Positions 535-21,334 of a stretch of DNA of 21,649 bases are shown one piece after another. The DNA comes from Myxococcales bacterium (lineage in GTDB: Bacteria; Myxococcota_A; Polyangia; Haliangiales; Haliangiaceae), in the NCBI GenBank assembly GCA_016706545.1, contig JADJJK010000031.1:1-21649 (forward strand). The letters are read 5' to 3'. Position 1 is the stretch's first letter. Each line of letters opens with the position of its first letter. The position numbers were made by a program, and so were the translations under genes. The notes under the pieces were generated by a model. The model searched no databases and had not been told where the DNA came from. It worked only from the letters and a program-made list of their open reading frames with translations.

Positions 535-762
535 TCACTTCGGAAACGGGAAGGTCGGCAGCGGCAGCGGCTGCTGCGGCGGCAGCTTGACGTCGGGGTT
601 GATCGACGTGGTGCAGCCCGCCTGCGAAGGGGTCGGGGTGGCGTTGGGCCGGCGATCCTCCACGTTGGTGGACTGGCAGTCCGTCGGCGAGTAGCGCATG
701 CCGCCGCTGATGCCGGAGAGGTCGGTGAGGTCGAGGGTCTGGAGCGAGCTGGCGTTGGACAT
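535..762 (-). CDS. Small 75-aa peptide with a double-glycine (GG) leader: MSNASSLQTLDLTDLSGISGG | MRYSPTDCQSTNVEDRRPNATPTPSQAGCTTSINPDVKLPPQQPLPLPTFPFPK
   Basis: The internal ATG at 762 to 760 (minus strand) lies within the longer 535..828 ORF. Almost every codon ends in G or C, so it is strongly coding-like. Its N-terminus matches the class II bacteriocin/PCAT double-glycine leader consensus position by position: L-15, L-12, D-8, L-7, I-4, G-2, G-1. The 54-aa core is polar and Pro-rich with 2 Cys. Confidence 0.5.
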   Translation of the reverse strand: MSNASSLQTLDLTDLSGISGGMRYSPTDCQSTNVEDRRPNATPTPSQAGCTTSINPDVKLPPQQPLPLPTFPFPK

Positions 763-930: not shown

Positions 931-978
931 GCCTGGTCGCCTGGTCGCCTGGTCGCGTGGTCGCCTGGTCGCCTGGGT
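931..978. repeat. Tandem 8-mer array CCTGGTCG x6 (one variant CGTGGTCG)
   Basis: cctggtcg cctggtcg cctggtcg cgtggtcg cctggtcg cctgggtc. It sits between the TPR-like gene stop (991) and the presumed promoter of the peptide gene. Confidence 0.85.
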
Positions 979-990
979 CCGCGGTCCGGT

Positions 991-1632
991 TCAAGGTCCG
1001 CGCGGCGCGGCGGTCTGCAGGAGCTCCTGGTAGTACTCCCCGAGCGCGCGCTCGAACCCATCGAGCGGGTGCCCGGCAGCGCCGGGGTGGCCCGTCGCTC
1101 GCTCCGCCAGGTCCAGCACGCAGCCGAGCATGGTGGCGAGCGCGGCAGCCGCGTGCCCCGCAGAGTGCAAGGCCAGCGACAGGAACGCGGTGTACGCCGC
1201 GTACCCCGGATCTCGCGCCAGCTCCTCGGTGAGCAAGACCACCGCCTCGTCGGCGCGGCCCACGTTGCGCAAGGTCGAGCCGTAGCCGACGACGAAGCGG
1301 CGACGCAGCGGCTCGGGCACGCCGAGCTGCCAGGCCGCGTCGTAGTGGCGCACGGCGGCGGCCTCGTCGCCGGCGCGGTCGAGCCCGAACGCCGCCTCGA
1401 TGCGCGCCTCCACGTCCGAGGGCGCGCGCGCCGCCAGCGCCAGCGCGGCCGGCAGGTGGTCCTGATGGTCGCCACGTTGACGGAGCGCGCGCAGGCGCGA
1501 AGCCTCCGCGCGGAGCTTCGCGCTGTCCGCGTCATCCGCGCTGTCCGCGCCGTCCGCGTCATCCGCGCCGTCCGCGCCCGCGCTGTCCGCGCCATCCGCG
1601 GCGCCCAGCGGAGGTGCGCGCCGCTGCGTCAT
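991..1632 (-). CDS. Hypothetical protein with an Asp/Ala low-complexity N-terminus (DGADSAGADGADDADGADSADDADSA) and a C-terminal TPR-like helical domain (TPR_5-like)
   Basis: 213-aa ORF with coding-like G/C third-position bias. Its ATG at 1632 to 1630 overlaps the TGA of the upstream EVE gene (ATGA overlap), which implies an operon. The C-terminal half has TPR-like helices (RHYDAAWQLG...VVGYGSTLRNVGRADEAVVLL...). Confidence 0.6.
   Translation of the reverse strand: MTQRRAPPLGAADGADSAGADGADDADGADSADDADSAKLRAEASRLRALRQRGDHQDHLPAALALAARAPSDVEARIEAAFGLDRAGDEAAAVRHYDAAWQLGVPEPLRRRFVVGYGSTLRNVGRADEAVVLLTEELARDPGYAAYTAFLSLALHSAGHAAAALATMLGCVLDLAERATGHPGAAGHPLDGFERALGEYYQELLQTAAPRGP
1530..1610. repeat. 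In-frame tandem 9-nt coding repeat (RTCCGCGYC) encoding the (D-G/S-A)n N-terminal tail of the 991..1632 protein
   Basis: gtccgcgtc atccgcgct gtccgcgcc gtccgcgtc atccgcgcc ...; it encodes ADGADSAGADGADDADGADSADDADSA on the minus strand. Confidence 0.8.
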
Positions 1633-2264
1633 CGCGTGGTCCCCCGCGCGGGCTTGGCAGGCTTGGCCTTGGCCTTGGCGACAGGCTTGGCCTTGGCGGC
1701 AGGCTTGGCCTTGGCGACAGGCTTGGCCTTGGCGGCAGGCTTGGCCTTGGCGGCAGGCTTGGCCTTGGCGGCAGGCTTGGCGCCAGCGCCGCTCCCCGCA
1801 GCGCTTCGGCTGAGCTCCTGGATCACGGCCACGTGCGCTGCGCTCGCCGGCTGCACCGAGAGCCTCATGCCACGGCGCAGCACCAGCATGTCCGCCAGCC
1901 GCGGCTCGGCGTGCAGCTCCTCCAGGCTCACCAGGCGCGGCAACGTCGCCACGTACGAGACGTCCACGCAGATCCAGGTGGGCGCGTCGCGCCGCGCTTT
2001 GGGATCGTAGTAGGGGCTCTCGGGATCGAACTGCGTTTCATCGACCACGTTGGTCCGATGCACCCGGGCCATCCCGGCGACTCCAGAGGGGTGCGCGTTG
2101 GAGTGGTAGAACAGGACCTCGTCACCCACCTGCATCTCGTCGCGCATGAGGTTGCGGGCCTGGAAGTTGCGGACCCCGGTCCACGGTTCGATCTTGACGC
2201 GGGCGAGATCATCGATCCCGAAGGACTCAGGCTCGGTCTTCATGAGCCAAACGCGCGGTGCCAT
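1629..2264 (-). CDS. EVE (PUA-like) domain protein fused to a histone H1-like Lys/Ala/Pro repeat tail (AKPAAK x about 7)
   Basis: N-terminus MAPRVWLMKTEPESFGIDDL...VGDEVLFYHSNAHPSGVAGMARV is a typical EVE-domain start and core. The C-terminus is encoded by a tandem 18-nt DNA repeat at about 1651-1790 and is extremely basic (AKPAAKAKPVAK...). Confidence 0.8.
   Translation of the reverse strand: MAPRVWLMKTEPESFGIDDLARVKIEPWTGVRNFQARNLMRDEMQVGDEVLFYHSNAHPSGVAGMARVHRTNVVDETQFDPESPYYDPKARRDAPTWICVDVSYVATLPRLVSLEELHAEPRLADMLVLRRGMRLSVQPASAAHVAVIQELSRSAAGSGAGAKPAAKAKPAAKAKPAAKAKPVAKAKPAAKAKPVAKAKAKPAKPARGTTR
1651..1790. repeat. In-frame tandem 18-nt coding repeat (GCAGGCTTGGCCTTGGCG) encoding the AKPAAK histone H1-like tail of the EVE protein
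   Basis: About 7 near-identical 18-mers alternating GCGACAG and GCGGCAG variants. Confidence 0.85.
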
Positions 2265-2426: not shown

Positions 2427-3020
<594 letters not shown>

Positions 3021-4193: not shown

Positions 4194-7100
4194 TCAGGGC
4201 ACGAGCTTCTGCAGAAACGCCAGGCCATCGGCGTTGCTGTCGAGCAACCCGATCACCAGCTTGGCGGTGGCGCGCGCCATCGGTCCGCCGCCGTCGGCTT
4301 CCTTCTTGAGCGCCTCGACGGCCGCCTTGGCTCCGGGCGGCGTGCGCGCGAGCACGATGAACGCCGCCGCCACCACCAGCCGGCGCATGGCGTTCTGCTC
4401 GGCGCCACCGAGCAAGGCGCGCAGGCGGTCGGGGGCCTGGGTCTTGGCGTAGGCGGCGGCCAGCGACGGCAACATGGCTACCCGCACGTCGTGCGAGGGG
4501 TCAAGGAGCAGCGGCTCGAGGAGCTGCTCGGTCAGCGCGGCGTCGCGATCGACGAGGCCGATGGCCGCCGCCGCCGCTTGCGCGCGCTCGCGCTCGGTGC
4601 GGGACGCCAGCGCTCGTCCAAGCCGGGTCGCCACCGCCTCCTTCGCGGCCAGCCTGGCCACCGTGGTCAGCGCGAGCTGGCTGATGTCAGGATCGGTGTC
4701 CCGCACCGTGACCGCGAGCGCCTTCTCGATGCTCTGGACCGGGAGCTTGTCGCGGTGGAGCGTGAGCTGCTCGAGCGCCGCGCGGCGGACCTCGGCTTCT
4801 GGATCGGCCAGCGCGGTCGCGAGCGTGGCCTCGGCGGCGATGCCCGCGCTCAGCGAGGCCTCGACCGTGGCCACGCGCACCTCGGCGACCTTGTCGGCCA
4901 TGCCGCGCGTCATCAGCTCCACCACCCCGAGCTGCTTGGCCGCGCGCAAGAGCGCGAGCTTCTCGCCCTCGTCGCCGCGACCGAAGCCGCGCAGCAGCGC
5001 CGGCGCCGCCGCCTCGCTGGCCGCGTTGCCGAACGAGCCGAGGCCGCGGATCGCGACCATGCGGACCTCTCGGACCGCGTCGTCGGCCAGCGCCACCAGC
5101 GCGTCTGCGGCGGACTTGTTGCCGTTCTTGGCGGCGTCGGAGAGGATGCGCGCGGCCGTGGTGCGGATGCCTGCGTCTGGATCTCGCACCAGGCGCAGCG
5201 CGATGGCCGATCCGTTCTTGCCGGGCTCGGGGCCCTCCGCCACGCACTCGATGGCGATGCGACGCACCTCCACGGACGGGTCGTCAGTGGCCCGCACCAG
5301 CGAGCGCCGCGCGTCCTGCGAGCCGCCGCCGATGGCGTTGCACAGGCCCTGGACGCCGAGCGGGTGCAGGGCCGGATCATCGGTCGCGCGCGCGGCGGCC
5401 TCGAGGAAGTTGAGCACGTTGGCCGGACGCTTGCGCGCCAGCTTGGCGTAGATGCGGACGGCCTCTCTCCGCGGGCGTCCCTTCTGCTTCCAGAGCTGCG
5501 CGATGCCGTCCACCGCGACCGCGGTGGACGCGCCCTCTTCGGCGCCGGCGGCGAGCCCAAAGCCCGCGCCCACCGCGACGTCGAAGCGCTCGTTCTTGAC
5601 CATCTTGATGAGCTGCTCTTGCGCCGGTCGTCCGATGCGACCGTAGGCGGTCGCCGCGGCGGCGCGGACGTCCGGAGCGTCGTCACGCAGCAAGGTCTCG
5701 AGCGCGGGCCGCGCGACGTCCGCCTTGATCAGCACCAGGAGCCCCCAGGCCTTGGCGGCGGCGACCTTGAGCGGGCGGCTCGTCTTCTTGTCGCTGGTCA
5801 GCGCGCCAAGCGCGGGCACCGCGCGGTCCACCGCCACCCTGGCGTAGAGGGGCAGGGCGGCGGCGCGGAGGGCCTCCGACTTGTTGTCGAAGGCATCCTG
5901 GGCGATCGTCACCAGGTCGATGGCGGGCGGCAGCGGATCTAGCTCGGTGAGCATCTCCAGCGCGAAGATCCGCGACTCGTTGGGGGCGTCCTTGGCCAGC
6001 ACCGCGAGCGCCTCCACGGTGGCCGCGCGCGCGGCCGCCAGCGAGGAGCGGAGCATGGCGCGGGCCGCGTCTCGTTGCCCAGCCGAGGTGTTGGGCTCGG
6101 TCAGGATCGCGACCGCGGCCGACGGCGGCGGCCGATCTTCTGTGCCGGTGTCCACGATGGCCAGCGCCTGGAGCTCGCTGCGCGCCTTGGCGTCGATGTC
6201 GCCGGCGAGCGCGCCAGCGATGAGGCGGTTGGCTCGCTCCTCCGGCATGGTGCGCAGCTCGGTGAGCGCGCTCTTGCGCAGCTCGGGGTTGCCCGAGGCC
6301 AGCGCCTTGGTGAGCGCCTCGGTGTAGGGCTCCGGGCGGCGCCGCGCCGCCGCCGAGGCCACCGCCACCGCGGCGCGCTGCACCGCGGGGGAGGGCGAGG
6401 CGATGGCCCCTTCGATGAGCGCGGTCTCCGCGCGCCCGCCGCGGGCGATGGGGCGCAGGAGGTCCAGCATCTCGACGACCTCTTCAGGCTCCTTGGCCAG
6501 CTTCTTGAGCTTGTCGAGGGCTTCCTCGGAGCCGGTCGCGCCATAGGCGACCGCGGCGGCGAGGCTCGGCGCCATGACGGAGGCGACCCGGGGCTCCATG
6601 CGTCCGGCGTCGTCGCCGAGATCGTGGTTCTCGATGCGCTTCCACGCCTCGGGGGCGACCATGCTGCGGGTCAACCCGGTCTCGGCGACGATGTCGCCGA
6701 AGCCGAGCCAGTGGAACATGGACAGGCCGGCGCGGCCGTCGCGCAGCACCACCTGATCGCCGCCGGCGCGCGTCTGGACGTCGAAGTACACACGGCCGCT
6801 CATCGCGATGTACGCGATGAGCAGCAGCACCAGCGGGAGCGCGGCGATGGCGATGGCGATGGCGCCGTAGTAGCGCCGCGAGCGCGCGACCAGCGCCTTC
6901 TCCTGCGGGGTGACCGGCGCGATGCCCTCGCGCACGAGCGTGTAGAGCTCGACGAGCCGCAGCCGCGAGGCGGTGTCGGCCTTGGAGCCGAGCAGCTCGT
7001 GGGCGCGCCTGGCCGCGGCGCGGGTGGGCGCGGTCAGCTCGCGCAGCCTGGACACCAGGATCTCATGGCGCAGGCTCCACATGGTGCCGGCGATGTCCCA

Positions 7101-8186
7101 GCGCATGACGATGCCGCGCGCCTCGAGCGTGTCGAGGATGTGGCGGCCGCTCTCGGGCTCCAGGGTGATGCGGCGGGCCAGGGCCAGGCCGTCGTACGGA
7201 CCAAAGGGGCCGTCCGCCAGCTCGGCGAGGAGCCGCAGGCCGTTGCGCTGGCTCCCTGCGGCCACGCAGGCGTCGGTGATCCACGAGGCCGCCAGCTCGC
7301 GCGCGCCGCCGCCGCGGGTCAGCGCCTCGAGCGTGGTCACGTTGCGCAGGCCCAGCGCCAGCGCGCTGATCTGGAGGTCGGCGGGCAAGACGCCGTCTCC
7401 GTCCTTGCCGAGATAGGCGATCACCTCATCGACCACCGGCCGCATCGCGCCGGGCGGCGCGCCGGAGGCGATCATCGCCTCGAGCACCGCGCTGGCCTCG
7501 GCGGGCGCAAAGCGGCGGAGCTCGTAGCGGTTGGACGGCGGAAACAACGAGCCGGTGCGCCGCTCGAGCTGCGCCAGCGTGTGCATGCGCTCCGAGGCAC
7601 AGGCAAAGAGGAACCGCGCCCTGCCGCCGGCGCGCCCGGCGACCTTGGCGAACAGATCCGCGAGATCTGCGGTGCCGCGCTCGGTGCGACAGGTTCGATC
7701 GACGTCGTCGATGACGAACACGAACTGCTGGCCGGGGATCGCGTTGGCGACCGCCCGCGCCAGGAACACGGGCGGAGACTCCCCTGGTTGCTGCTGCAGC
7801 CCAAAGGCGCTCATCCCCGCCGCCAGCGAGGCGGAGGGCTCGTCTGGATCGTCGCTGATGAGCGCGACGATGCCTTGATCTCGGAGCTGCGGGATGAGTG
7901 CCGCGCGCAGGAGCGAGGTCTTGCCGACGCCTGGCTCGCCATAGAGCAGGCCAGCGCGAAACACGTCGGTGGTGACGAGCTGGACCAGCTCGTCGCGTTG
8001 TCGCTCTCGGCCCAGCAGCGCCTCACGTTCGGCTTCACCGAAGGCGTCGAGGCCACGCAAGGGCGATACCGTACCTGGATGCGTCGCGATCGCCACGGCG
8101 AGACTATACAGATCCGGCGCCTGAAATGTCGTTGTCGGGGCGGGCGTTTTGCCTGCGGCGGACGCGCGGACAAGGCGCGGGCGCAT
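4194..8186 (-). CDS. Large (1330-aa) multidomain protein: N-terminal AAA+ (AAA_16/STAND-like) P-loop ATPase, one central transmembrane helix, and a C-terminal array of about 850 aa of HEAT (PBS-lyase type) repeats
   Basis: Walker [14 protein letters not shown] and Walker [11 protein letters not shown] predicted TM segment [26 protein letters not shown] lies at about aa 455-480. After it come many approximately 31-aa HEAT_2/PBS-lyase-like repeats (e.g. [69 protein letters not shown]). The frame is long and clean with coding G/C third-position bias. The start codon is embedded in a 13-bp x3 direct repeat. Confidence 0.8.
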
Positions 8187-10261: not shown

Positions 10262-10353
10262 CCGCGAGGCGCTGACGGCCGACGCTGCATCGTGTCAGCG
10301 GCCTTGCGCTGGGGCGCGCCTGCCATGCTGCATTTTTTCGCTGCGCCCGAGGC

Positions 10354-10464
10354 CGCGCATGGGCGCCGCCCGGGGCCGCGCATGGGCGCCGCTGCGCAGC
10401 CGAGGCTTTGCGGTGACGAGATCGCGACTTGGACGCAGCGGTCGCAGTGGTCGCAGCGGTCCTT
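10354..10464. repeat. Two short direct-repeat motifs in the spacer: CCGCGCATGGGCGCCGC x2 (about 10354-10393) and GCAGYGGTC x3 (about 10438-10464)
   Basis: Read directly: ccgcgcatgggcgccgcccggggccgcgcatgggcgccgc and gcagcggtcgcagtggtcgcagcggtc. Confidence 0.7.
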
Positions 10465-10565
10465 GGGACCTGTGGTCATCAGGTTTTCACGTTCCCGGCT
10501 CCGCTTTGGATGCGCGCGGCGGCAAGAGCCTGTACGCTCAGCGGGCTCATGGGCGAGCCGCGGTC

Positions 10566-10678
10566 GAACTCATCGGCGAACTCATCGGCGAGTTCATCGG
10601 CGAACTCATCGGCGAGTTCAGCGGCGAGCGGCGAGTTCATCGGCGAACTCATCCGCGAGTTCATCGGCGAACTCATCG
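10566..10678. repeat. Tandem 12-mer array alternating GAACTCATCGGC and GAGTTCATCGGC, about 9 copies (a 24-mer unit)
   Basis: cgaactcatcggcgaactcatcggcgagttcatcggcgaactcatcggcgagttca...gagttcatcggcgaactcatccgcgagttcatcggcgaactcatcg. It would encode ELIGEFIG in one frame, or RTHRRV in the giant-ORF frame. Confidence 0.85.
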
Positions 10679-10756
10679 ATAGGTCCTGCGATAGAGCCTT
10701 TGCCAGACTCCGCCACGGACGCCAGGGACGACGGCGGACCGCGTGCCGGCTCGTCA

Positions 10757-10822
10757 TCTCCATCGCTGCCGTCGCTGCCGTCGTCGCCGTCGTCGCCGTC
10801 GCCATCGTCGCCGTCGCCATCG
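10757..10822. repeat. Tandem GCCGTCGYC / CCGTCG microsatellite, about 10 units
   Basis: ccatcgctgccgtcgctgccgtcgtcgccgtcgtcgccgtcgccatcgtcgccgtcgccatcg. It would encode SPSLPSLPSSPSSPSPSSPSPS in the giant-ORF frame. It lies immediately upstream of the proposed ATG at 10847. Confidence 0.8.
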
Positions 10823-10846
10823 CGCGGCGGCAAGATCGTCGAGGAG

Positions 10847-13800
10847 ATGCTCGAGGTGGCGCGCGCCGAGGCTGACGCGGCGATGTCTGCGGCGGAGCGC
10901 GAGGTCGCTGGCGACCTGGCGGCGCGGGCGGTGCTCCTTGCCTGGGACAGCCAAAGCCTGGTGCCGGCGAGCATCGCGAGCCGCGCCGGTGACGGGACCG
11001 GGCCGCACGAGCCGTCGGGGACAGGCGCCGGGGGGCTCGCCTCCGATCCAGCGTGGGCAGAGCGGACGCTGTTCTTGCCGGCCACCCACCCGCTGAGCGC
11101 GCGGCTCCAGCTCGCCGCGGCGCTGGCTGGGTCGGTGGGGCGCGCGGACGCCGATTCGAGCTTGCTGTGGGCCGAGCGCGCCGTTCACCACGCCGATCCG
11201 CAACACCGCGGTGATCTTGCGCTCTGGCTGGCCGAAGCCTGGCAGCTCGGTGGCGGACGCCCGCCGGCCACCGTGCTCGAGCTGGTGGTGGCTGGCGAGT
11301 CGCCGCACGCGCGGGCGCTGGCGCAGCTCGTGGGGTTCGCGCCGCGGCGCGTGGCGGAGCTGTCCGCGGCGGCGGTGGGGCGGCACGGCGGCGGCGACGA
11401 GCGCGCCGAGGCGGCCAGCCTGCTCCTCGACTCCGGCGCGGACCCGCGTGAGGCCGCCGCGCTGTGCGCGCGCGTCGCCAGCAACGCGCTGGAGGTCCGG
11501 CTGCGGTGCCTGGAGCTCGCCATCGAGGCCAGGCTGCGCGGCGACAGCCAGGAGGACCTGACGCAGCTCTGGCTCGAGCGCGCCGCGCTGGTGGGGGACC
11601 TGTCCAATGGGGCGCTCGATGCGGCGGTGTCTCGTGTGCTGGCGGTGGAGAGCGATGATTCCGGACGCGATTCCGCGCGCGATTCCAGCCGGGACCTTGG
11701 CCCGCGCCGCACCCCGTCCGAGCCCAACCTCCGCGTCCTGGCTCGGATCCCCAGAGCGAGCAAGAGCCCGATGGCTGGCGACGACGCCGAGCCCGTCGCT
11801 GGCCACGCCGCGGGAGCTGCCGCGCCGCGACCGCCGCGTCACGCGCAGCTCACCCCGCTGGCGGAGTCTCCGGCGGTGCGAGATCCGTACTTCGGTCCGC
11901 TGTACCTGCGCATGCGCAGCCTGACCTACGCCATCGCCGCCGGCGATCGCGCGGCGGCCACCGAGCTCCGGCGCCGGCTCGCGTTCGAGTCGCCCTGTCC
12001 GGTGGTGGCGGCGTGCCACGCGGCGCGCGCGGCCACCAGCCTCGAGGTCGCGATGGCCAGCGCGCCGGAGGCGGCGGTCGTCGACGCGCGCGACACCCGC
12101 GGCTCCGCGCTGGAGCTGGCGGAGGTGGCCTGCGAGCGCGTGCCGAGCCCGACCTTGCTGGCGTTGCTCGACCGCGCCTGGCTGCGCCGATCGCCCATCC
12201 CCGCGCAGGCGGTGGAGCGGCTGTCGCAGCGCGGCGGCGTGGCGCTGCGCTGGGCCGCTCACCTGGCGGAGCGCCGGCTCCTCGATCTGCCGCGCGCGAC
12301 GCGGCTGTGGTCGCAGGCCGCCGAGCTGGCGACGGCGGACAGCGGCTTCGCGCTGGATCACCTGGCGTCGTGTCACCGGCGGCTGGGCGACCACGAGGCG
12401 CTCGCCAAGATCTACGTCGCGCTGGCTGGACGCGAGGACACGCCCCGCGGGGTGGCGGTGTGGCGGTGCGCCGCCGCGGCGCTGGCCCTGTCGCGCGACG
12501 GGGAGGGCGCCCGGAGCGCGCTGGAGCGCGCCGTGGAAGCTGCGCCGCGTGACCCGGTCAGCCGGATCGGCCTCTTGCGGGTGGTCCTGGCCGCGTCGGA
12601 GTGGAGCACCGCGGTCAAGCTGCTGGAGGACATGATCCCCAAGCTGGCGGTGCGCGCGCTGCGGCAGCGATACTCGCGCGAGCGCGCGTGCTTGCTCGAC
12701 GTACACCTGCAGCGCTCCGCGGAAGCCGAGGACGCCTTCGAGCAGATCCTGGCCGAAGACCCGCTGGACGCCGACACGCTGGTGGCGCTGGGCGAGCTGT
12801 ACGAGCGGCGGCAAAAGCCGATGCTCGCCATCGCCGCGCGGCGACGCGCCTGCGATCTCTTGCCCCCGGCAGCCAGGGTTTCCCAGCTCGTGATCGTGGC
12901 GGAGCTGTGCCGCAACCACTCCGAGCTGGAAGACGGCCTCTCCGCGCTGGAGGAGGCGCAGCGGCTGGATCCCGAGAACTCGGACGTCCACCGCATGCTG
13001 GCCGACCTCTACGAGCAGCTCGGCAAGCCCGAGTACGCGGTGGTCGCGCTGCGCATGGAGCTGGCGCGCAACCCGGAGCCACCCCGGCGCATGGTCGCGC
13101 AGCTTCGGCTCGCCGGGCTGCTGGCCCGCCTCGGCACCGAGCCTGAGTCCGTGGTCGCGTTGTATCTCGATGTGTTGTCGATGGATCCCAGCAGCAGCGA
13201 GGCGCTCGCCGGCATCCAGGCGCCGGCGCGTGCGCTGGGTTGGTGGGACGCGCTGACGCGCGCCTTCCGCGCGGCGCCGCCCACTGCCGACAACCTGGTC
13301 GTGCTGGCCGACGCGCTGGAGAAGATGTCGAGCTTCGCGGAGCTAGCGCGGGTGCGCCGAGCGCAGCTCGAGGCCGCCACCTTGCCGGCGGAGCGCGCTC
13401 GCCGCGCCTCGGAGCTGGCGGTGCTGCACGAGACGCGGCTCGGTGATCCCGACGCCGCGATCGCGGCGCTGCGGCAGGCGGTGGGGGTGGCGCCCGAGCT
13501 CGAGCGCACAGGCCTTCTCCAGGACCTCGAGCAGCTCCTGGAACGCCATGGGCGCTGGCCGGAGCTGGCCGAGCTGTTCTCGAGCGAGCTGGCGCGGTGC
13601 GAGCCGGCGCAAGAGGAGGAGCGCGTGCGGCTGCATCTGCGTCGCGCGCGGGTCTGCGCCGAGCGGACCGGAGATCTCGCCAGCGCGGTGGCCGCCTGCG
13701 AGGCCGCGCTCGAGATCTTGCCGGAGCAGGTGGAGACGCAGGAGCTCCTCGCCGCGGTGTACGAGCGGGCGGGGCGGCGGCGAGACGCGATCCGGATCGT

Positions 13801-16800
13801 GCAGGGCCGCGCGCAGGCCGCCAGCGGCAGCGAGCGCGCCGGGCTCCTGGCGCGGGCGGCGCGCCTCCACCTGGCAGAGGACGACCTGGCCGGTGGCCTG
13901 GCGGCGTACCAGGCCGCCATCGAGGCCGACCCAGGCGATCGCGAGACCTTCACCGCCTACGAGCGCGCGTGCTACGCGCACAAGCGCTGGCCGGACGTGC
14001 TGCGCCTGTATGACACCGCCATCGCGCACGTCGAGGCGGGCGCGCACCGCGCCTACCGCCTGTTTGACCTGTACTCGCGCAAGGCGCAGGCGCAGGCGTC
14101 GTACCTGGGAGACCCAGACGGCGCCGCCGAGTCGCTGTGCCGGCTCATCGTCCAGGAGAACAACCCGGACGCATCCCTCAAGCTGATGGAGGAGCTCTGC
14201 GCCTCACGCGGCGACTACGCCGCGCTGGTGGACGCGCTCGAGCGCCGGGCGCAGGCCGCGCGAGATGGCGCGCGCAGCCTGGACGCGCTCCGCCGCGCGG
14301 TGACGGCCGCCGAGACGTACCTGGATGATCCCGCGCGCGTGGCGAAGCTCCGCGCGCAGGTGGTGCGGCTCGATCCTTCCGATGAGGCCAGCGCCAGCGC
14401 GCTCGAGGCCTTCTATCGTGAGCGCAAGGAGGTGACGGCGCTCATCTCGTTTCTGCACACCCAGATCGAGGCCAGCCGAGACTCCGCGCGCACGGTCGAG
14501 CTCCTGCAGCGGGTGGCCGAGGTCAGCGAGGACGACGCGCGGGACGTCGAGGGCGCCATCTTGCACTACACCAAGATCCTCGAGATCGAGCCCCGACACG
14601 TGGAGTCGCTGGAGGCGCTCAGCCGCATCTACGAGTCCACCGAGCGCTGGACGGAGCTCATCGAGATCACCCGCCGGCAGATCAAGGGCATGGCGGACCG
14701 CAGCAGCAAGGCGCTCTTGTACTTCCGCTGCGGCTCGGTGATGGAGGCCAAGTTCGGACGCGAGGAAGACGCGATCCGGTACTACCAGGCGGCGATCACG
14801 GTCTCGACGGCGTGCATGCCCGCCGTCCACGGCCTGCGCGATCTGTACCGTCGGCGACAGGAGTGGGCGCGCGTCGTCGAGACGCTGGAGCTCGAGCTCA
14901 AGCTCTGGCAGGACGACAAGGAGCGCGCCGGCGTGCTGGCCCAGATCGGGCAGGTCTACGCGGAGCGGATCGGCGACGGTCGCAGCGCGCGGCAGTACTT
15001 TCACGAGGCGCTGGCGGTGGACCCCGAGTGCGTCCCCGCCAACTGGGCGCTGTTCGAGGATTACTTCGCCGCTGGAAACTGGGAGCAGGCCCGGCCGCTG
15101 GCCAGCTCGCTGACCCAGCGGGCCATGCACGATGGCGATCCGGCGACGCGCAGCGAGTTCTATCGCAAGCGAGCGATGGTCTCGCTGCACACCGGCGATC
15201 CGCGAGACGCCGCCGAGAGCTTCGTGGTGGCGCTGGAGATCCGGCCCACCAACCTGGACGCGCTGGAGGCGCTCGGGAGGGTGGCGCGGAACCACCCCAC
15301 GGTCTACGACTTCGAGAGCACGTACCGCGAGCTGGAGCGGATCTATCGCCGGCGAGACGACGCGGCGCCGCTGCTGGCGCGCGTGTGGATGGGGTTGGCG
15401 ACGCTGGCGGAGCGCGCCGGCGATCTCGATCACGCCGCGGATCTGTCCAGCGCGGCCACCTCGCTGGCGCCCACGGATCTCATCGTGCTGATGGCGGTGG
15501 TGGACTTCCACTGCGACATGCGGCGCTGGGCCGCGGCGGTGGACGCCATCCTGGCGTTCTTGCCGCAGGCAAACCCGGCGGACGTCACCGCGGCGCGGCT
15601 GCGGCTAGCAGAGCTCCACGCCGATGGCCAGCGCGACGCCTCGCGCGCGATCGCCGTGCTCGGGGACGTCGTTCGCGATGAGCCCACCTGCCACGAGGCG
15701 CACTACCTGCTCGCCCAGCAGCACTACCTGCACGGTCGCCTCGCGGAGGCGCGCGCCGCCATGGACGCCGCGCTGGAGCTGGCGGAGTCACTGCCCGCGG
15801 CGACCGCGGACGCCGCGCTGGCGCGCTACCACTACTACCGCGGTCGCGTCCTCGGCGCGCAGGGCGATGGCGCCGCCGCCGAGGCGCAGTACCGCCTCGC
15901 GTGTGACCATGACCGTGGCTATGCGCCGCCGGCCTTGCTGCTGGCGCGGCGCGCCGCCGAGGTGGGGGACCATCGCCAGGCCGAGGCCCTGCTGATCGAA
16001 GCCGCGCGCGCCGCCATCGAGCAGCGCGGGGTGGTGGGGGCGGTGCCGATGCAGCGCGGCCTGGCCCGCATCCTCCTGGCCAATGGAGACCGGGTCGCGG
16101 CCATCGAGGCGTACCGCGGCATCCTCGCGGTCACGCCGGACAACGCGATCGACCGCGTCGCGCTGGCCGAGATCTACGCGGTCGATGATCTGCCGCGCGC
16201 CATCGCCGAGCTGCGCAAGGTGATCGATCGCGACCTTCGTCACGCGCCAGCGTACCGGCTCCTGGCCTGGTACTACGAGCAGCAAGGGGAGCTCGAGCGC
16301 GCGGCGCGGGTGCTGGCCGTGCTGGAGCTGATGGGCTTTGCAGAGGACAGCGACCTGGAGACGGCGCAGCGGCTGCGCGCCGCGCGGGTGGCGCCGCCGA
16401 TCGTGTCCTCGCTGGGCTCCGAGCAACGTCATCACCTGCTGGCGACGCGGGCCACTCGCGACGTCCTGGGCGAGGTCTGGTCCGTGTTCGCGCCGGCGAT
16501 CTCGGCGCTGTTCCCGCCGTTTGCGCTGGGCGAGGACCTGGTGCCCATGGAGGCCTACGGGGACGCCTCGCTGTGCGAGGACTACGCCGAGGTCGCGCGG
16601 ATCTTCGAGACCTCCGCGGAGGTGTTCCTGGGAGATCGGGTGCCGGGGATGACGATGGTGGTGACCCATCCACGACCGGCGATCGTCATCGACCGGGCGC
16701 TGGCGCAAGAGAGCCGCGCCGCCCGGCGCTTCCTCTTTGGCTGGTCGCTCGACGCGATCCGCGGCTCCTACGCGGTGCTGCTGTCCCTCGGCGCCTCGCA

Positions 16801-17185
16801 GTGCAGCGAGCTGAGCGCCATCCTGCGCGAGCTGTTCGCCAGCGAAGGCGACCGCTCGGGCGTGGCCGCGGAGCTGGTGCGCGTGGGAGGGGCCTCGGGG
16901 ACCAAGGTCCTCGACAAGTACGCCGGCCGGATGCGTGAGCTGGACGTCGAGGGGTGGATGGATGGCATGCTGGCCGGCGCCAAGCGCAGCGGTCTTTTGG
17001 CCTGCGACGAGTTCGAGGCCGCGATCTGGATGATCGCGCGCCTCTCCGGGGAGCGCCTCGCCGGGCACGACGACACCGCGGCGCTCGGTGCGGTGCTAGG
17101 CGGCGCGGACCTGGTACGGTACTACCTGAGCGATGACTACCAACGCCTGCGACAGAGCTTGACGGCCGCGAAGGCGGAGTCATGA
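10847..17185 (+). CDS. Giant (about 2110-aa) tetratricopeptide (TPR) repeat protein with a non-TPR C-terminal domain of about 280 aa
   Basis: The continuous frame has strong G/C third-position bias. There are dozens of TPR-like units (e.g. ADTLVALGELYERRQKPMLAIAARRRACDLLP; VHRMLADLYEQLGKPEYAVVALRMELARNPE; VESLEALSRIYESTERWTELIEITRRQIK). The ATG at 10847 is the first start after the repeat-nest spacer, although the long ORF formally opens at 10292 inside non-coding-looking repeats. The C-terminal roughly 280 aa (ELMGFAEDSD...LTAAKAES) is not TPR. Confidence 0.75.
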   Translation: MLEVARAEADAAMSAAEREVAGDLAARAVLLAWDSQSLVPASIASRAGDGTGPHEPSGTGAGGLASDPAWAERTLFLPATHPLSARLQLAAALAGSVGRADADSSLLWAERAVHHADPQHRGDLALWLAEAWQLGGGRPPATVLELVVAGESPHARALAQLVGFAPRRVAELSAAAVGRHGGGDERAEAASLLLDSGADPREAAALCARVASNALEVRLRCLELAIEARLRGDSQEDLTQLWLERAALVGDLSNGALDAAVSRVLAVESDDSGRDSARDSSRDLGPRRTPSEPNLRVLARIPRASKSPMAGDDAEPVAGHAAGAAAPRPPRHAQLTPLAESPAVRDPYFGPLYLRMRSLTYAIAAGDRAAATELRRRLAFESPCPVVAACHAARAATSLEVAMASAPEAAVVDARDTRGSALELAEVACERVPSPTLLALLDRAWLRRSPIPAQAVERLSQRGGVALRWAAHLAERRLLDLPRATRLWSQAAELATADSGFALDHLASCHRRLGDHEALAKIYVALAGREDTPRGVAVWRCAAAALALSRDGEGARSALERAVEAAPRDPVSRIGLLRVVLAASEWSTAVKLLEDMIPKLAVRALRQRYSRERACLLDVHLQRSAEAEDAFEQILAEDPLDADTLVALGELYERRQKPMLAIAARRRACDLLPPAARVSQLVIVAELCRNHSELEDGLSALEEAQRLDPENSDVHRMLADLYEQLGKPEYAVVALRMELARNPEPPRRMVAQLRLAGLLARLGTEPESVVALYLDVLSMDPSSSEALAGIQAPARALGWWDALTRAFRAAPPTADNLVVLADALEKMSSFAELARVRRAQLEAATLPAERARRASELAVLHETRLGDPDAAIAALRQAVGVAPELERTGLLQDLEQLLERHGRWPELAELFSSELARCEPAQEEERVRLHLRRARVCAERTGDLASAVAACEAALEILPEQVETQELLAAVYERAGRRRDAIRIVQGRAQAASGSERAGLLARAARLHLAEDDLAGGLAAYQAAIEADPGDRETFTAYERACYAHKRWPDVLRLYDTAIAHVEAGAHRAYRLFDLYSRKAQAQASYLGDPDGAAESLCRLIVQENNPDASLKLMEELCASRGDYAALVDALERRAQAARDGARSLDALRRAVTAAETYLDDPARVAKLRAQVVRLDPSDEASASALEAFYRERKEVTALISFLHTQIEASRDSARTVELLQRVAEVSEDDARDVEGAILHYTKILEIEPRHVESLEALSRIYESTERWTELIEITRRQIKGMADRSSKALLYFRCGSVMEAKFGREEDAIRYYQAAITVSTACMPAVHGLRDLYRRRQEWARVVETLELELKLWQDDKERAGVLAQIGQVYAERIGDGRSARQYFHEALAVDPECVPANWALFEDYFAAGNWEQARPLASSLTQRAMHDGDPATRSEFYRKRAMVSLHTGDPRDAAESFVVALEIRPTNLDALEALGRVARNHPTVYDFESTYRELERIYRRRDDAAPLLARVWMGLATLAERAGDLDHAADLSSAATSLAPTDLIVLMAVVDFHCDMRRWAAAVDAILAFLPQANPADVTAARLRLAELHADGQRDASRAIAVLGDVVRDEPTCHEAHYLLAQQHYLHGRLAEARAAMDAALELAESLPAATADAALARYHYYRGRVLGAQGDGAAAEAQYRLACDHDRGYAPPALLLARRAAEVGDHRQAEALLIEAARAAIEQRGVVGAVPMQRGLARILLANGDRVAAIEAYRGILAVTPDNAIDRVALAEIYAVDDLPRAIAELRKVIDRDLRHAPAYRLLAWYYEQQGELERAARVLAVLELMGFAEDSDLETAQRLRAARVAPPIVSSLGSEQRHHLLATRATRDVLGEVWSVFAPAISALFPPFALGEDLVPMEAYGDASLCEDYAEVARIFETSAEVFLGDRVPGMTMVVTHPRPAIVIDRALAQESRAARRFLFGWSLDAIRGSYAVLLSLGASQCSELSAILRELFASEGDRSGVAAELVRVGGASGTKVLDKYAGRMRELDVEGWMDGMLAGAKRSGLLACDEFEAAIWMIARLSGERLAGHDDTAALGAVLGGADLVRYYLSDDYQRLRQSLTAAKAES

Positions 17186-18682: not shown

Positions 18683-19234
18683 CTAGACGATCAGCCCCTT
18701 CTTGTAGTCCAGCAGCTCCTTCTGCGTCTTGAGCAGGAGCTGGTTAGTCTCCAGCAGCTCCTTGGTGCGTATGCGGACCTGGTTGGCGAGCCGCTGTCGC
18801 TCCTGGGCCTCGCGCTCCAGGATGTCCTGGTACTTCATCTGCACGTCCGCCTCGTCGGTGACGTTGCGCTGGATCTCGAGCGCGCCCACCGCGACCCCGT
18901 GCTCATCCGTGATGGGCACGGCCGACAAGATGAAGCGCATGGTCGCGCCCTCTGGGCCTCCCAGCACGGCGCCCGAGATCTCGTCGAGCCGGACGTGCCG
19001 GTTGTCGGTCCAGCACTGCTGCGCGATGCACTTCGTGGCGCAGATGTTGAATTCGATCACCTCGTAGCAGCGCCGGCCTCTGAGGCCCCTGGCGACCTGC
19101 CGCGGCATCATGGCGAAGAACGCACGATTGAAATCGACGATCCGCCGCTCGGAGTCGACCACGAAGTAGCTATCCACGATCACGCTCGCGACCCGCTTGA
19201 ACTCCGCAAGGAACTTATCGAGCGCAAGCGACAT
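18683..19234 (-). CDS. Stand-alone PAS-domain sensor protein with a 4-Cys cluster and a C-terminal coiled coil
   Basis: PAS-like core [20 protein letters not shown]...[26 protein letters not shown]...[29 protein letters not shown]. Four Cys are spaced C-x9-C-x3-C-x4-C. The C-terminus is heptad-like ([44 protein letters not shown]). It is divergent from the PP2C gene. Confidence 0.7.
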
Positions 19235-19633: not shown

Positions 19634-21334
19634 ATGGCTAAAAGAGGGGGCCTGAGCGTATCGCTCAAGATGATCGCTACCACCACGCTGCTCGTGGTCG
19701 GTATTATCGTGGGCTTTGGCGTCCTGAACGTCATGAACATCCGCAAGGTGTTCGATGACACGACGGCCGCGCAGATCAAGGTGTTCCGGGATGGTCGGGA
19801 GCTGCTGGGTGACTTTGGAACCCCTGCGTTTGCTCGCGCCGTGGAGCCGATGCTCATCAACCGGCAAGACGCGGAGATGATCGCGCTGCTCGACGGCGCC
19901 GTCCGTCAGGACACGCGAGATCTCGGCGGCAAGCGCGACTACGGCCTCAAGCTGGGCGTCATCCTCGACGGCAACCAGGGGCTGGTCGCGCACTGCTTCG
20001 AAGATGCAGGCAGCGCCGGCGTGCGCTGCAAGCCCGGCTCGCACGAGCCGATCTCCGACACGCTCGGCAAGCTCACGTCGGATGCGTGGAAGGCCGCGCT
20101 GGCGGCGTGGACCGCCGCGTCCGCCGGCAAGGGCGACGTGCTGGTCCGCTTCGATCAGAGCGATGGTGGCTCCAAGTATCGCTTCTTCGCGTTCCCGGTG
20201 TTCGTCAACGGCCCCGCCTCGGCGGCTGGCGCCGCAGCGACAGAGCGGCCCGACGCTCGCCAGGGGTACGTGGTCCTGGGCTATGACCTCGCGCCCATCG
20301 ACACCTTCGCGGGGCTCGCCGAGGAGCGGAAGTCGCAAGCCTCGACCGAGGCCGTGGTCTACACCGGCGCGGTCGGCGTGCTGTTCATCTTGATTGGCAC
20401 GCTCCTGGCGATCTTCCAGGGCCTGTCCATCTCGCGCCCCATCAAGCAGCTCGCCAAGCGCGCAGACCAGATCTCGCGCGGCGACCTGGCGGCGCGAGTC
20501 GAGGTCAAGTCGAGCGACGAGATCGGCGTGCTGGGAGAGAACTTCAACTACATGGCGGATCAGATCGTGGTCCTCCTGCAGCAGACCGCGGAGAAGGCGC
20601 GCATCGAGCAGGAGCTCGAGGTGGCGCGCACCATCCAGGAGACCCTGGTCCCGCCGCCGGACATCGTCGACAAGGGGACGCTGCGCTTCTGCGGGTACTT
20701 CCAGCCTGCGTCGCAGACCGGCGGAGACTGGTGGACCTGGCACGATCTCACCGGCGGCAAGGTGCTGCTCGTGATCGGCGACGTCACCGGCCACGGCGTG
20801 CCGTCCGCGATGATCACCGCGGCGGCCAAGGCCGCGTGTGACGTGGCGCGCGCCGTCCACAACGACGACGTCACGGTGAGCCGCCTGCTCGAGATCATGA
20901 ACTACGCGATCTTCGAGAGCGCCAAGCGCAAGTTCGTCATGACCTGCTTTGCCTCCATCATCGACACCCGGCGGCGCACCATCACGTACGCCAACGCCGG
21001 GCACAACTTCCCGTATCTGCTGCGTGGCAACGAGTTCGCCACCATGATGATCCGCGGCAACCGCCTGGGCGATGTCCGCGAGTCGCAGTACGAGGCCAAG
21101 ACCATCGAGCTGTCGCCGGGCGACGTGCTCATCTGGTACACGGACGGCATCGTCGAGTGCGAGAACCGCAGCGGGGAGGAGTGGGGCGAGAAGCGGTTCC
21201 GGGCGGCGGTCAAGCGAGCGGCGAGCCTCGACTCCGCGCAGATGCGCGACGCCATCGTCGCCGATTCTCGAGATTTCTATTCCGATGTTCCGCGCAAGGA
21301 CGACATCACCATGGTTGTCGGGAGGATCTATTGA
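19634..21334 (+). CDS. Membrane sensor Ser/Thr phosphatase: TM1 - periplasmic domain (about 230 aa) - TM2 - HAMP - PP2C/SpoIIE (RsbU-like) phosphatase
   Basis: TM helices MIATTTLLVVGIIVGFGVLNV and AVVYTGAVGVLFILIGTLLAIF. HAMP linker ISRPIKQLAKRADQISRGDLAARVEV...IGVLGENFNYMADQI. PP2C motifs ...FQPASQTGGDWWTW...LLVIGDVTGHGVPSAMITA...ITYANAGHNFPYLL...VLIWYTDGIVE. Coordinates are taken from the ORF track. Confidence 0.9.
   Translation: MAKRGGLSVSLKMIATTTLLVVGIIVGFGVLNVMNIRKVFDDTTAAQIKVFRDGRELLGDFGTPAFARAVEPMLINRQDAEMIALLDGAVRQDTRDLGGKRDYGLKLGVILDGNQGLVAHCFEDAGSAGVRCKPGSHEPISDTLGKLTSDAWKAALAAWTAASAGKGDVLVRFDQSDGGSKYRFFAFPVFVNGPASAAGAAATERPDARQGYVVLGYDLAPIDTFAGLAEERKSQASTEAVVYTGAVGVLFILIGTLLAIFQGLSISRPIKQLAKRADQISRGDLAARVEVKSSDEIGVLGENFNYMADQIVVLLQQTAEKARIEQELEVARTIQETLVPPPDIVDKGTLRFCGYFQPASQTGGDWWTWHDLTGGKVLLVIGDVTGHGVPSAMITAAAKAACDVARAVHNDDVTVSRLLEIMNYAIFESAKRKFVMTCFASIIDTRRRTITYANAGHNFPYLLRGNEFATMMIRGNRLGDVRESQYEAKTIELSPGDVLIWYTDGIVECENRSGEEWGEKRFRAAVKRAASLDSAQMRDAIVADSRDFYSDVPRKDDITMVVGRIY

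Follow-up and report, generated by a model that had tools for sequence, protein, structure and literature searches.

The census by Bell, Wolf and Koonin split EVE domains, which have a PUA-like fold, into a slow-evolving cluster and a fast-evolving, defence-associated class (PMC7641849). Slow-evolving EVE proteins (PSPTO5229-like proteins and THYN1) are conserved from bacteria to humans without an established ligand or function, and those with a solved structure, PSPTO5229 (2EVE), PP5205 (2G2X), a Leishmania protein (2AR1) and human THYN1 (3EOP, 5J3E), stand alone, with no basic tail and no reported TPR_5 partner. The EVE protein that we describe here is unlike them in both respects. It is encoded in a 21,649-nucleotide (nt) stretch of DNA from a Myxococcales bacterium (contig JADJJK010000031.1, ~72% GC), hereafter the window; it ends in a disordered tail rich in lysine, alanine and proline (K/A/P-rich), and its gene overlaps that of a TPR_5 protein.

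The only mechanistic model of an EVE-DNA contact is VcaM4I, an EVE-HNH protein whose EVE domain flips 5-methylcytosine (5mC) or 5-hydroxymethylcytosine (5hmC) into a described base-flipping pocket (PMC7897488), and THYN1 has been recovered as a reader of the same two bases (PMC7641849, PMC7897488). The window protein resembles VcaM4I in having an EVE domain of the type whose hydrophobic pocket takes up the flipped base; VcaM4I, however, is a nuclease fusion of the fast-evolving defence class, whereas the window protein has no catalytic partner. Fungal THYN1-like proteins that join EVE to AT-hooks (PMC7641849) also carry a short basic appendage for non-specific nucleic acid binding, although theirs is an AT-hook and not a KPAA/H1-like repeat, is eukaryotic and arose independently.

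The tail itself has counterparts in AlgP, PhaF, the C-terminal domain of CarD and that of histone H1, which share with it K/A/P repeats, the KPAA motif, predicted disorder and a variable repeat number. These regions bind polyanions (PMC12818456, PMC9239181, PMC2919716), a property that the window tail may share by analogy. The KPAA region of Pseudomonas aeruginosa PhaF binds specific mRNAs through its lysines and activates translation, and its P. putida orthologue is believed to be a DNA binder (PMC12818456). AlgP, with ~30 KPAA repeats, sits on polyphosphate granules (PMC9239181, PMC12818456), and the H1-like domain of Anaeromyxobacter CarD can stand in for a DNA-binding HMGA domain (PMC2919716). 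Known KPAA regions hold 9-30 of the motifs compared with 4-7 here, and their folded partner domains are unrelated to the EVE domain found here. The TPR_5 family (PF12688) is represented by Bacillus halodurans BH0479 (3K9I), which the second protein of the pair resembles in an above-threshold profile match and the signature GSTxRxxG; its pairing with EVE is confined to Haliangiales, and an N-terminal acidic repeat is unique to the window species.

All three parts (EVE domain, KPAA/H1-like tail, TPR_5 family) are known, and the combination of EVE with a basic appendage has a eukaryotic precedent (PMC7641849). What appears new is the bacterial EVE-KPAA fusion as a lineage-wide trait, together with a conserved and translationally coupled EVE-TPR_5 pair, of which we found no description. 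The words "TPR", "disordered" and "low complexity" appear nowhere in the text of the EVE census (PMC7641849), and in the literature since 2021 a full-text search on "EVE domain" brought up no paper about housekeeping EVEs of bacteria. The elements of the pair lie in the window as follows.

1629-2264, minus strand: gene 1, EVE domain with KPAA/H1-like tail, 211 amino acids (aa); stop codon included in the coordinates; Kofleriaceae proteins are the best of 461 homologues
1815-2252, minus strand: EVE (PUA-like) domain, residues 5-150
1632-1814, minus strand: disordered basic tail, residues 151-211, from composition and structure prediction
1668-1781, minus strand: 18-nt tandem repeat (GCCAAGCCTG[C/T]CGCCAAG), 6.3 copies, 96% matches, encoding AKPAAK/AKPVAK
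1629-1632, minus strand: ATGA stop/start overlap, the EVE-TPR_5 coupling junction, read from the sequence and found in 13 other loci
991-1632, minus strand: gene 2, acidic TPR_5 protein, 213 aa, net charge -11; 381 homologues
1114-1404, minus strand: TPR_5 profile match, residues 77-173, with the signature RRRFxVGYGSTLRNVGR in its conserved columns
1519-1602, minus strand: acidic (A-D-G/S/D)n repeat, N-terminal, residues ~11-38, period 9/27 nt, predicted disordered (confidence score ~60)
931-976, no strand: non-coding 8-nt repeat just past the TPR_5 stop, variable between strains

The first 150 residues of the gene 1 product form an unambiguous EVE domain, as the original prediction had proposed. 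Residues 5-150 match PF01878 over profile positions 2-144 of 145 with E = 1.4e-49 and 168.3 bits against a cut-off of 23, and the Pfam scan gave no second domain in the protein. Sequence matches in the PDB are 2AR1, 2G2X, 2EVE and human THYN1 (3EOP, 5J3E), with E values of 1e-36 to 1e-26. An AlphaFold2 (AF2) model computed with 63 homologues has an overall predicted local distance difference test score (pLDDT) of 86, rising above 90 over residues 1-150, and its top Foldseek structures are again 2AR1, 2G2X, 2EVE and THYN1 (template modelling (TM) score 0.79-0.90, r.m.s.d. ~2 Å, E 1e-18 to 1e-15), followed at a distance by ASCH at 5e-4 and then by YTH at 1e-3 or weaker. Trp-28 and Tyr-85 (W28/Y85), which are invariant across 63 clade sequences, correspond in the alignment to PP5205 to Trp-26 and Tyr-82 (2EVE numbering), the pocket residues stressed for the Pseudomonas EVE structure (PMC7897488).

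Identity of the EVE core is 45-57% to tail-less orthologues from Gammaproteobacteria, Planctomycetota, Acidobacteriota and other groups, and 35-47% to the Leishmania and human proteins. By its sequence, the window EVE is assigned to the slow-evolving cluster of beta/gamma-proteobacterial and metazoan/fungal proteins (THYN1/PSPTO5229), with whose stand-alone members it shares, at 35-47% identity, family, sub-cluster, fold and pocket residues. The median charge of the core is -2 in tail-bearing and +1 in tail-less orthologues, a weak contrast with overlapping ranges. An exact look-up found no database record of the window protein; the best homologues of both proteins of the pair come from genomes of Kofleriaceae/Haliangiales (Myxococcota) and from soil metagenomes. 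The source organism is itself a myxobacterium of the Kofleriaceae/Haliangiales. GC content at third codon positions (GC3) is 0.87 for the EVE gene and 0.91 for the TPR_5 gene, as expected for this genome, and together with the presence of orthologues this supports both genes as coding sequence. An alternative overlapping open reading frame (ORF) at 825-1595 on the minus strand, as well as ORFs in other frames, were discarded as high-GC artefacts on the grounds of GC3 and lack of homologues.

The tail that follows the domain has a net charge of +18 over residues 151-211 and is composed of 25% lysine, 38% alanine and 13% proline, with no aspartate or glutamate. It contains four KPAA, two KPVA and one KPAK motif, and in the AF2 model it shows no secondary structure (pLDDT 53-67). 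An (AKPAAK)6-type block spans residues ~163-205 and is encoded by the 18-nt array, whose Tandem Repeats Finder (TRF) score of 214 is the highest within the window. The original prediction of an H1-like tail made by a perfect 18-nt repeat is right as to the repeat-encoded (AKPAAK)n and wrong as to its perfection, because the copies are 96% identical: in two of six units a C-to-T change turns KPAA into KPVA, which gives the order AKPAAK (three times), AKPVAK, AKPAAK, AKPVAK. Matches of the tail to NCBIfam models (EntB, DnaX, ValS) fell far under their cut-offs and were set aside as low-complexity noise.

Comparison across the lineage indicates that this tail is not a peculiarity of one genome. 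A tail of at least 20 aa past the domain is present in 100 of the 120 best homologues, with medians of 48 aa, 31% K+R, 46% A+P, 2% D+E and a charge of +15, and tail length among the 120 ranges from 5 to 112 aa. Among the loci of the genome collection, the Haliangiales entries L001, L002, L004-L007 and L012 have long basic tails, while ~70 orthologues from other phyla stop a few residues past the domain, the exception being the mildly basic ends of ~20 aa in two Pirellulales. The tails cannot be aligned with one another, and 36 of them have distinct internal repeats of their own in at least three copies (AAAPAPAKK, RKPAARKPA, PAAKAVAK and SPKPK among them). In 159 kb of Haliangiales DNA a K/A/P-rich segment of this kind was found in the EVE genes and in no further ORF. 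The K/A/P-rich tail is thus a lineage-wide trait of the Haliangiales EVE orthologue, conserved in composition and not in sequence. That position, charge and composition are conserved while the sequence is free and is rebuilt by tandem duplication argues for selection on a polycationic disordered appendage of this protein in particular.

Three strain-level contigs, L081 and L100 (both from ERZ27280343) and L101 (from ERZ28653834), could be aligned to the window and are ~99.7% identical to it outside repeats. All four tandem arrays of the locus, a 9-nt array at 417-515, the 8-nt array at 931-976, the 9/27-nt array at 1519-1602 and the 18-nt array at 1668-1781, are polymorphic between the window and L100/L101; the four lie within 1.4 kb (417-1781), and the remaining 20 kb of the window contain about seven. 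The EVE tail has six units in the window and seven in L101 (order A-A-A-V-A-V-V, plus a Lys-to-Gln exchange), so that the tail length is variable as anticipated, as far as short-read assemblies can tell. L100 is 5'-truncated and differs from the window in the order of A and V units of the tail. The acidic repeat is shorter by one codon in L100 and by ten codons in L101, the 8-nt array 3' of the TPR_5 stop is 16 nt shorter in L100, and the 9-nt array, which lies 3' of a peptide gene described below, is altered in L100, with L101 unrelated beyond it. Because the periods of the coding arrays (18 nt; 9/27 nt) are divisible by three, such variation resizes the proteins and does not switch them off. 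The public megahit contig L081 carries a 100%-identical EVE gene up to the point where it breaks off, inside the 18-nt repeat, in a Nextera adapter (CTGTCTCTTATACACATCT...; L081 7314-7391). This chimera produces a false 169-aa protein (P0001) ending in ...AKLSLIHI, and no copy number can be taken from L081.

Two further differences were noticed in L101. Its TPR_5 gene (L101 193-759) has a 45-nt in-frame deletion, at about 1128-1172 of the window, by which 15 residues of a TPR helix are lost (FLSLALHSAGHAAAA); either a defective allele or an error of assembly could account for this. Past the 9-nt array, L101 1212-1498 diverges completely from the window (~300-470) and encodes a TetR-like N-terminus (..IYWHFRDKVDLFNAMMDRV..), the window counterpart being the 3' end of a PHP-domain gene. 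The location of the breakpoint at the repeat points to a rearrangement or an assembly chimera.

The stop codon of the EVE gene overlaps the start codon of the TPR_5 gene as ATGA, as had been read from the window at the outset, and this junction is widely kept. The 4-nt overlap is found in 14 loci (window, L082, L001, L012, L084-L086, L090-L093, L095, L103 and L104, for the last two of which it was taken from gene calls) whose EVE proteins are 50-88% identical, and in L087 the two genes overlap by 1 nt. Among EVE-seeded loci, TPR_5 lies directly 3' of EVE in L001 and L012, and a TPR_5-seeded metagenome scan placed EVE directly upstream on the same strand in 10 of 12 close TPR_5 homologues. About a dozen more EVE and TPR_5 hits come from contigs of equal length, a hint at further pairs. 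None of the tail-less EVE genes of other phyla had a TPR_5 neighbour in the loci examined. These observations strongly support the proposed operon, that is, a translationally coupled EVE-TPR_5 gene pair conserved in Kofleriaceae/Haliangiales.

The assignment of the second protein to a TPR_5-like family holds as well, with a PF12688 match at E = 1e-15 and 58.4 bits against a cut-off of 24.2. Its AF2 model consists of nine helices (pLDDT 92), for which Foldseek returned generic TPR solenoids (consensus TPR, MamA, OGT-TPR) and no functional lead; neither the fold model nor Foldseek indicated an enzymatic domain. The only solved relative is 3K9I (BH0479), at E = 0.003 by sequence, and a weak BTAD match (E = 8e-4) is under the cut-off. 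TPR_5 homologues are acidic throughout, with a median charge of -7 and a range from -15 to 0, and at -11 the window protein is the most acidic in the set of 13 paired loci.

The original prediction described an acidic (DGA)n repeat tail for this protein. The repeat is there, but it is N-terminal and reads (A-D-G/S/D)n. In L082, whose EVE protein is 88% identical, the ATGA junction is kept and the TPR_5 protein begins MSEASRAAELARV... without an acidic repeat, which is also absent from all other TPR_5 orthologues. Across 13 pairs, moreover, the charge of the tail shows no correlation with that of the TPR_5 protein (Spearman +0.22, p = 0.46). Because the acidic repeat is confined to this species and the charges do not covary, the suggested pairing of a basic-tail with an acidic-tail protein comes down to two slippage products that happen to coincide in one species; an electrostatic relation of a more general kind between the tail and its partner is possible and finds no support here. 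At the other end of the L082 protein (2431-2500) the C-terminus reads (PGT)5, encoded by a 9-nt repeat. The homologous stretch of the window (931-990) lies past the stop as the 8-nt repeat and is therefore non-coding.

From these data we think it rather probable that the pair consists of a slow-evolving EVE reader equipped with a KPAA-type disordered polyanion anchor, together with a stoichiometric TPR partner. The PUA-like barrel has kept its conserved aromatic pocket, which by analogy with VcaM4I and THYN1 would hold a flipped modified base, most plausibly of the 5-methylcytosine type, in DNA or RNA. To this domain a disordered polycationic tail has been added at the C-terminus, in the Haliangiales lineage only. 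If it acts like other KPAA regions, the tail would be a non-specific polyanion anchor that raises affinity for, or residence time on, the nucleic acid backbone, and such an anchor could let a weak, modification-selective EVE contact work at low concentration. Its sequence and length turn over by tandem-repeat slippage while composition is kept, as the tail comparisons indicate. Judging from the start/stop overlap, the TPR_5 protein is probably made in a fixed ratio with the EVE protein and may act in a stoichiometric complex with it, as a regulator or as an adaptor that links it to some other factor. The N-terminal acidic repeat of this species is a recent slippage product outside the conserved design.

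Several observations weigh against this interpretation. In L003-L006 a tailed or short-tailed EVE gene has no adjacent TPR_5 gene, L007 has a TPR_5 gene after sodB instead, and L088/L089 and Nannocystis punicea have TPR_5 without EVE; since each is found alone, the pairing is optional. The conserved TPR_5 signature RRRFxVGYGSTLRNVGR is rich in arginine, which disfavours a simple acidic groove for the basic tail. The charges of tail and partner fail to covary. Finally, the repeat differences between strains come from short-read assemblies, which are prone to mis-resolving arrays of 114-132 bp, and one contig broke there.

As to the polymer that the anchor would bind, KPAA tails bind RNA in PhaF and sit on polyphosphate in AlgP, so that DNA is only one candidate. 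On these analogies we would tentatively name RNA as a possible target, regard DNA or the nucleoid as rather unlikely, and give polyphosphate very little weight.

The first alternative, which we regard as possible and hold only tentatively, is an RNA-directed reader, in which EVE would recognise a modified base in a stable RNA or an mRNA, the KPAA tail would bind RNA, and the TPR protein would link the complex to translation or RNA processing. It draws on the PhaF KPAA region, which binds specific mRNAs and activates translation (PMC12818456), on the suggestion of Bell et al. that tRNA m5C or 6S RNA are ligands of slow-evolving EVEs (PMC7641849), and on the structural closeness of EVE to YTH. 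The conserved neighbourhood, however, contains neither an RNA gene (Rfam) nor an RNA-modification enzyme (Pfam), and EVE co-crystals are with DNA only. Beta/gamma-proteobacterial EVEs lie in a ZapB-ZapA-ssrS-EVE context, whereas the window EVE has sodB, TPR_5, PHP and SnoaL-like neighbours instead; Rfam detected no RNA family, 6S RNA included, in the whole window, so that there is no 6S RNA link here.

The original prediction saw in the EVE protein a nucleoid-associated factor directed at modified DNA, with a co-translated partner whose acidic repeat would neutralise or chaperone the tail; this seems unlikely to us. The H1-like tail of the myxobacterial CarD (Anaeromyxobacter) does bind DNA (PMC2919716), the EVE domains of THYN1 and VcaM4I bind DNA with 5mC/5hmC (PMC7641849, PMC7897488), fungal EVE-AT-hook fusions exist (PMC7641849), and with -11 the window TPR_5 protein is the most acidic of its kind. 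Yet the acidic repeat is missing from L082, at 88% identity, and from all other orthologues; it is ten codons shorter in L101, whose tail is one unit longer; the charges do not covary; and in PhaF a KPAA tail binds RNA (PMC12818456). We are similarly sceptical of a bacterial chromatin-type reader, in which EVE would read methylated cytosine in genomic DNA, the H1-like tail would bind and compact that DNA, the TPR protein would recruit an effector and slippage of the 18-nt repeat would tune binding. If true, prokaryotes would have a counterpart both to the eukaryotic methyl-DNA readers that carry linker-histone tails and to the EVE-AT-hook proteins of fungi.

Could the tail be functionless, a neutral low-complexity sequence produced by slippage in a genome of 72% GC? 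Four arrays within 1.4 kb, all of them polymorphic, and tail sequences that are not conserved would fit this explanation, which we nonetheless consider quite improbable, because at least 100 homologues retain the composition, the position and the sign of charge, with acidic residues at only 2%, no other ORF in 159 kb has such a segment, and all coding repeats are in frame. It is very improbable that the tail targets polyphosphate granules with an unrelated role for EVE: AlgP, with its ~30 KPAA repeats, does localise to such granules (PMC9239181, PMC12818456), but Pfam analysis of the neighbours revealed no polyphosphate genes, and the EVE fold is one that binds nucleic acid.

A role as sensor in defence, be it modification-dependent (type IV) restriction or another system, is close to refuted. 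The original prediction had drawn a link to such restriction, and the idea could appeal to the many fast-evolving EVE domains fused to nucleases (PMC7897488, PMC7641849) and to an nSTAND1 NTPase gene 2 kb away. Against it, the core shares 45-57% identity with housekeeping EVEs of many phyla and falls in the THYN1/PSPTO5229 cluster, Pfam found no nuclease fused to or adjoining EVE, PADLOC gave no matches to defence families for four local proteins including EVE, TPR_5 and nSTAND1, and sodB and PHP keep their synteny with EVE throughout the order.

The anchored EVE reader with its TPR partner, which we prefer, would give two experimental handles on housekeeping EVE proteins: the tail indicates work on a polyanionic polymer, and the TPR protein could be used in pull-downs that lead towards the pathway. 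The locus also illustrates, cleanly and in a natural setting, how a KPAA-type disordered region arises and changes size through tandem-repeat slippage, which bears on present studies of KPAA regions as binders of RNA, DNA or polyphosphate.

The surroundings of the pair include three further elements.

2265-2427, no strand: 163-base-pair divergent spacer between EVE and the Fe/Mn superoxide dismutase gene, read from the sequence
2428-3020, plus strand: Fe/Mn superoxide dismutase (SOD), divergent from EVE, GC 63%, far below its surroundings
535-762, minus strand: ORF for a peptide with a GG-type leader, 75 aa, MSNASSLQTLDLTDLSGISGG followed by MRYSPTDCQ..., with a Pro-rich C-terminus, GC3 0.89

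The housekeeping neighbours that are stable across the order are the divergent Fe/Mn SOD gene (sodB), the PHP-domain gene and a SnoaL-like gene. Synteny of SOD and EVE was seen in every Haliangiales locus examined, often with other genes inserted between the two. The EVE promoter presumably lies in the 2265-2427 spacer, in which a block, TGTTGTAGCGCG, nearer to the SOD start is common to the window, L082, L083 and L103; a scan of 300-2500 found no sigma-70 consensus, promoter or terminator, and such a scan carries no information at 72% GC. In several relatives (e.g. L084 2289-2888) the EVE strand also encodes, between SOD and EVE, an MBL-fold hydrolase and a low-complexity (GS)n/(NGS)n protein whose C-terminus is predicted to anchor it in a membrane, and in these relatives EVE and TPR_5 may close a longer operon.

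The gene with the GG-type leader had been placed immediately downstream of the pair on the same strand; the strand is correct, and the gene lies 229 nt away. An inverted-repeat search gave no convincing hairpin between it and the TPR_5 gene. It is identical in L100 and L101 and absent from the orthologous loci L082 and L103, so that it does not belong to the conserved unit and is a species-specific neighbour. The sole family signal of the peptide is PF14406, below threshold at E = 0.003, and no C39 peptidase or ABC exporter was seen adjoining its ORF.

Beyond the SOD gene, the nSTAND1 NTPase (1330 aa, 4194-8186, minus strand), which has HEAT repeats, lies ~2 kb from EVE. The far end of the window, unrelated to the EVE finding, encodes a PAS-domain protein (18683-19234, minus strand) and a HAMP-SpoIIE/PP2C phosphatase (19634-21334, plus strand). 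Between these, at 10292-17185 on the plus strand, a protein of 2297 aa consists of TPR repeats over nearly its entire length, and its gene has a 12/24-nt array of its own at 10565-10678.

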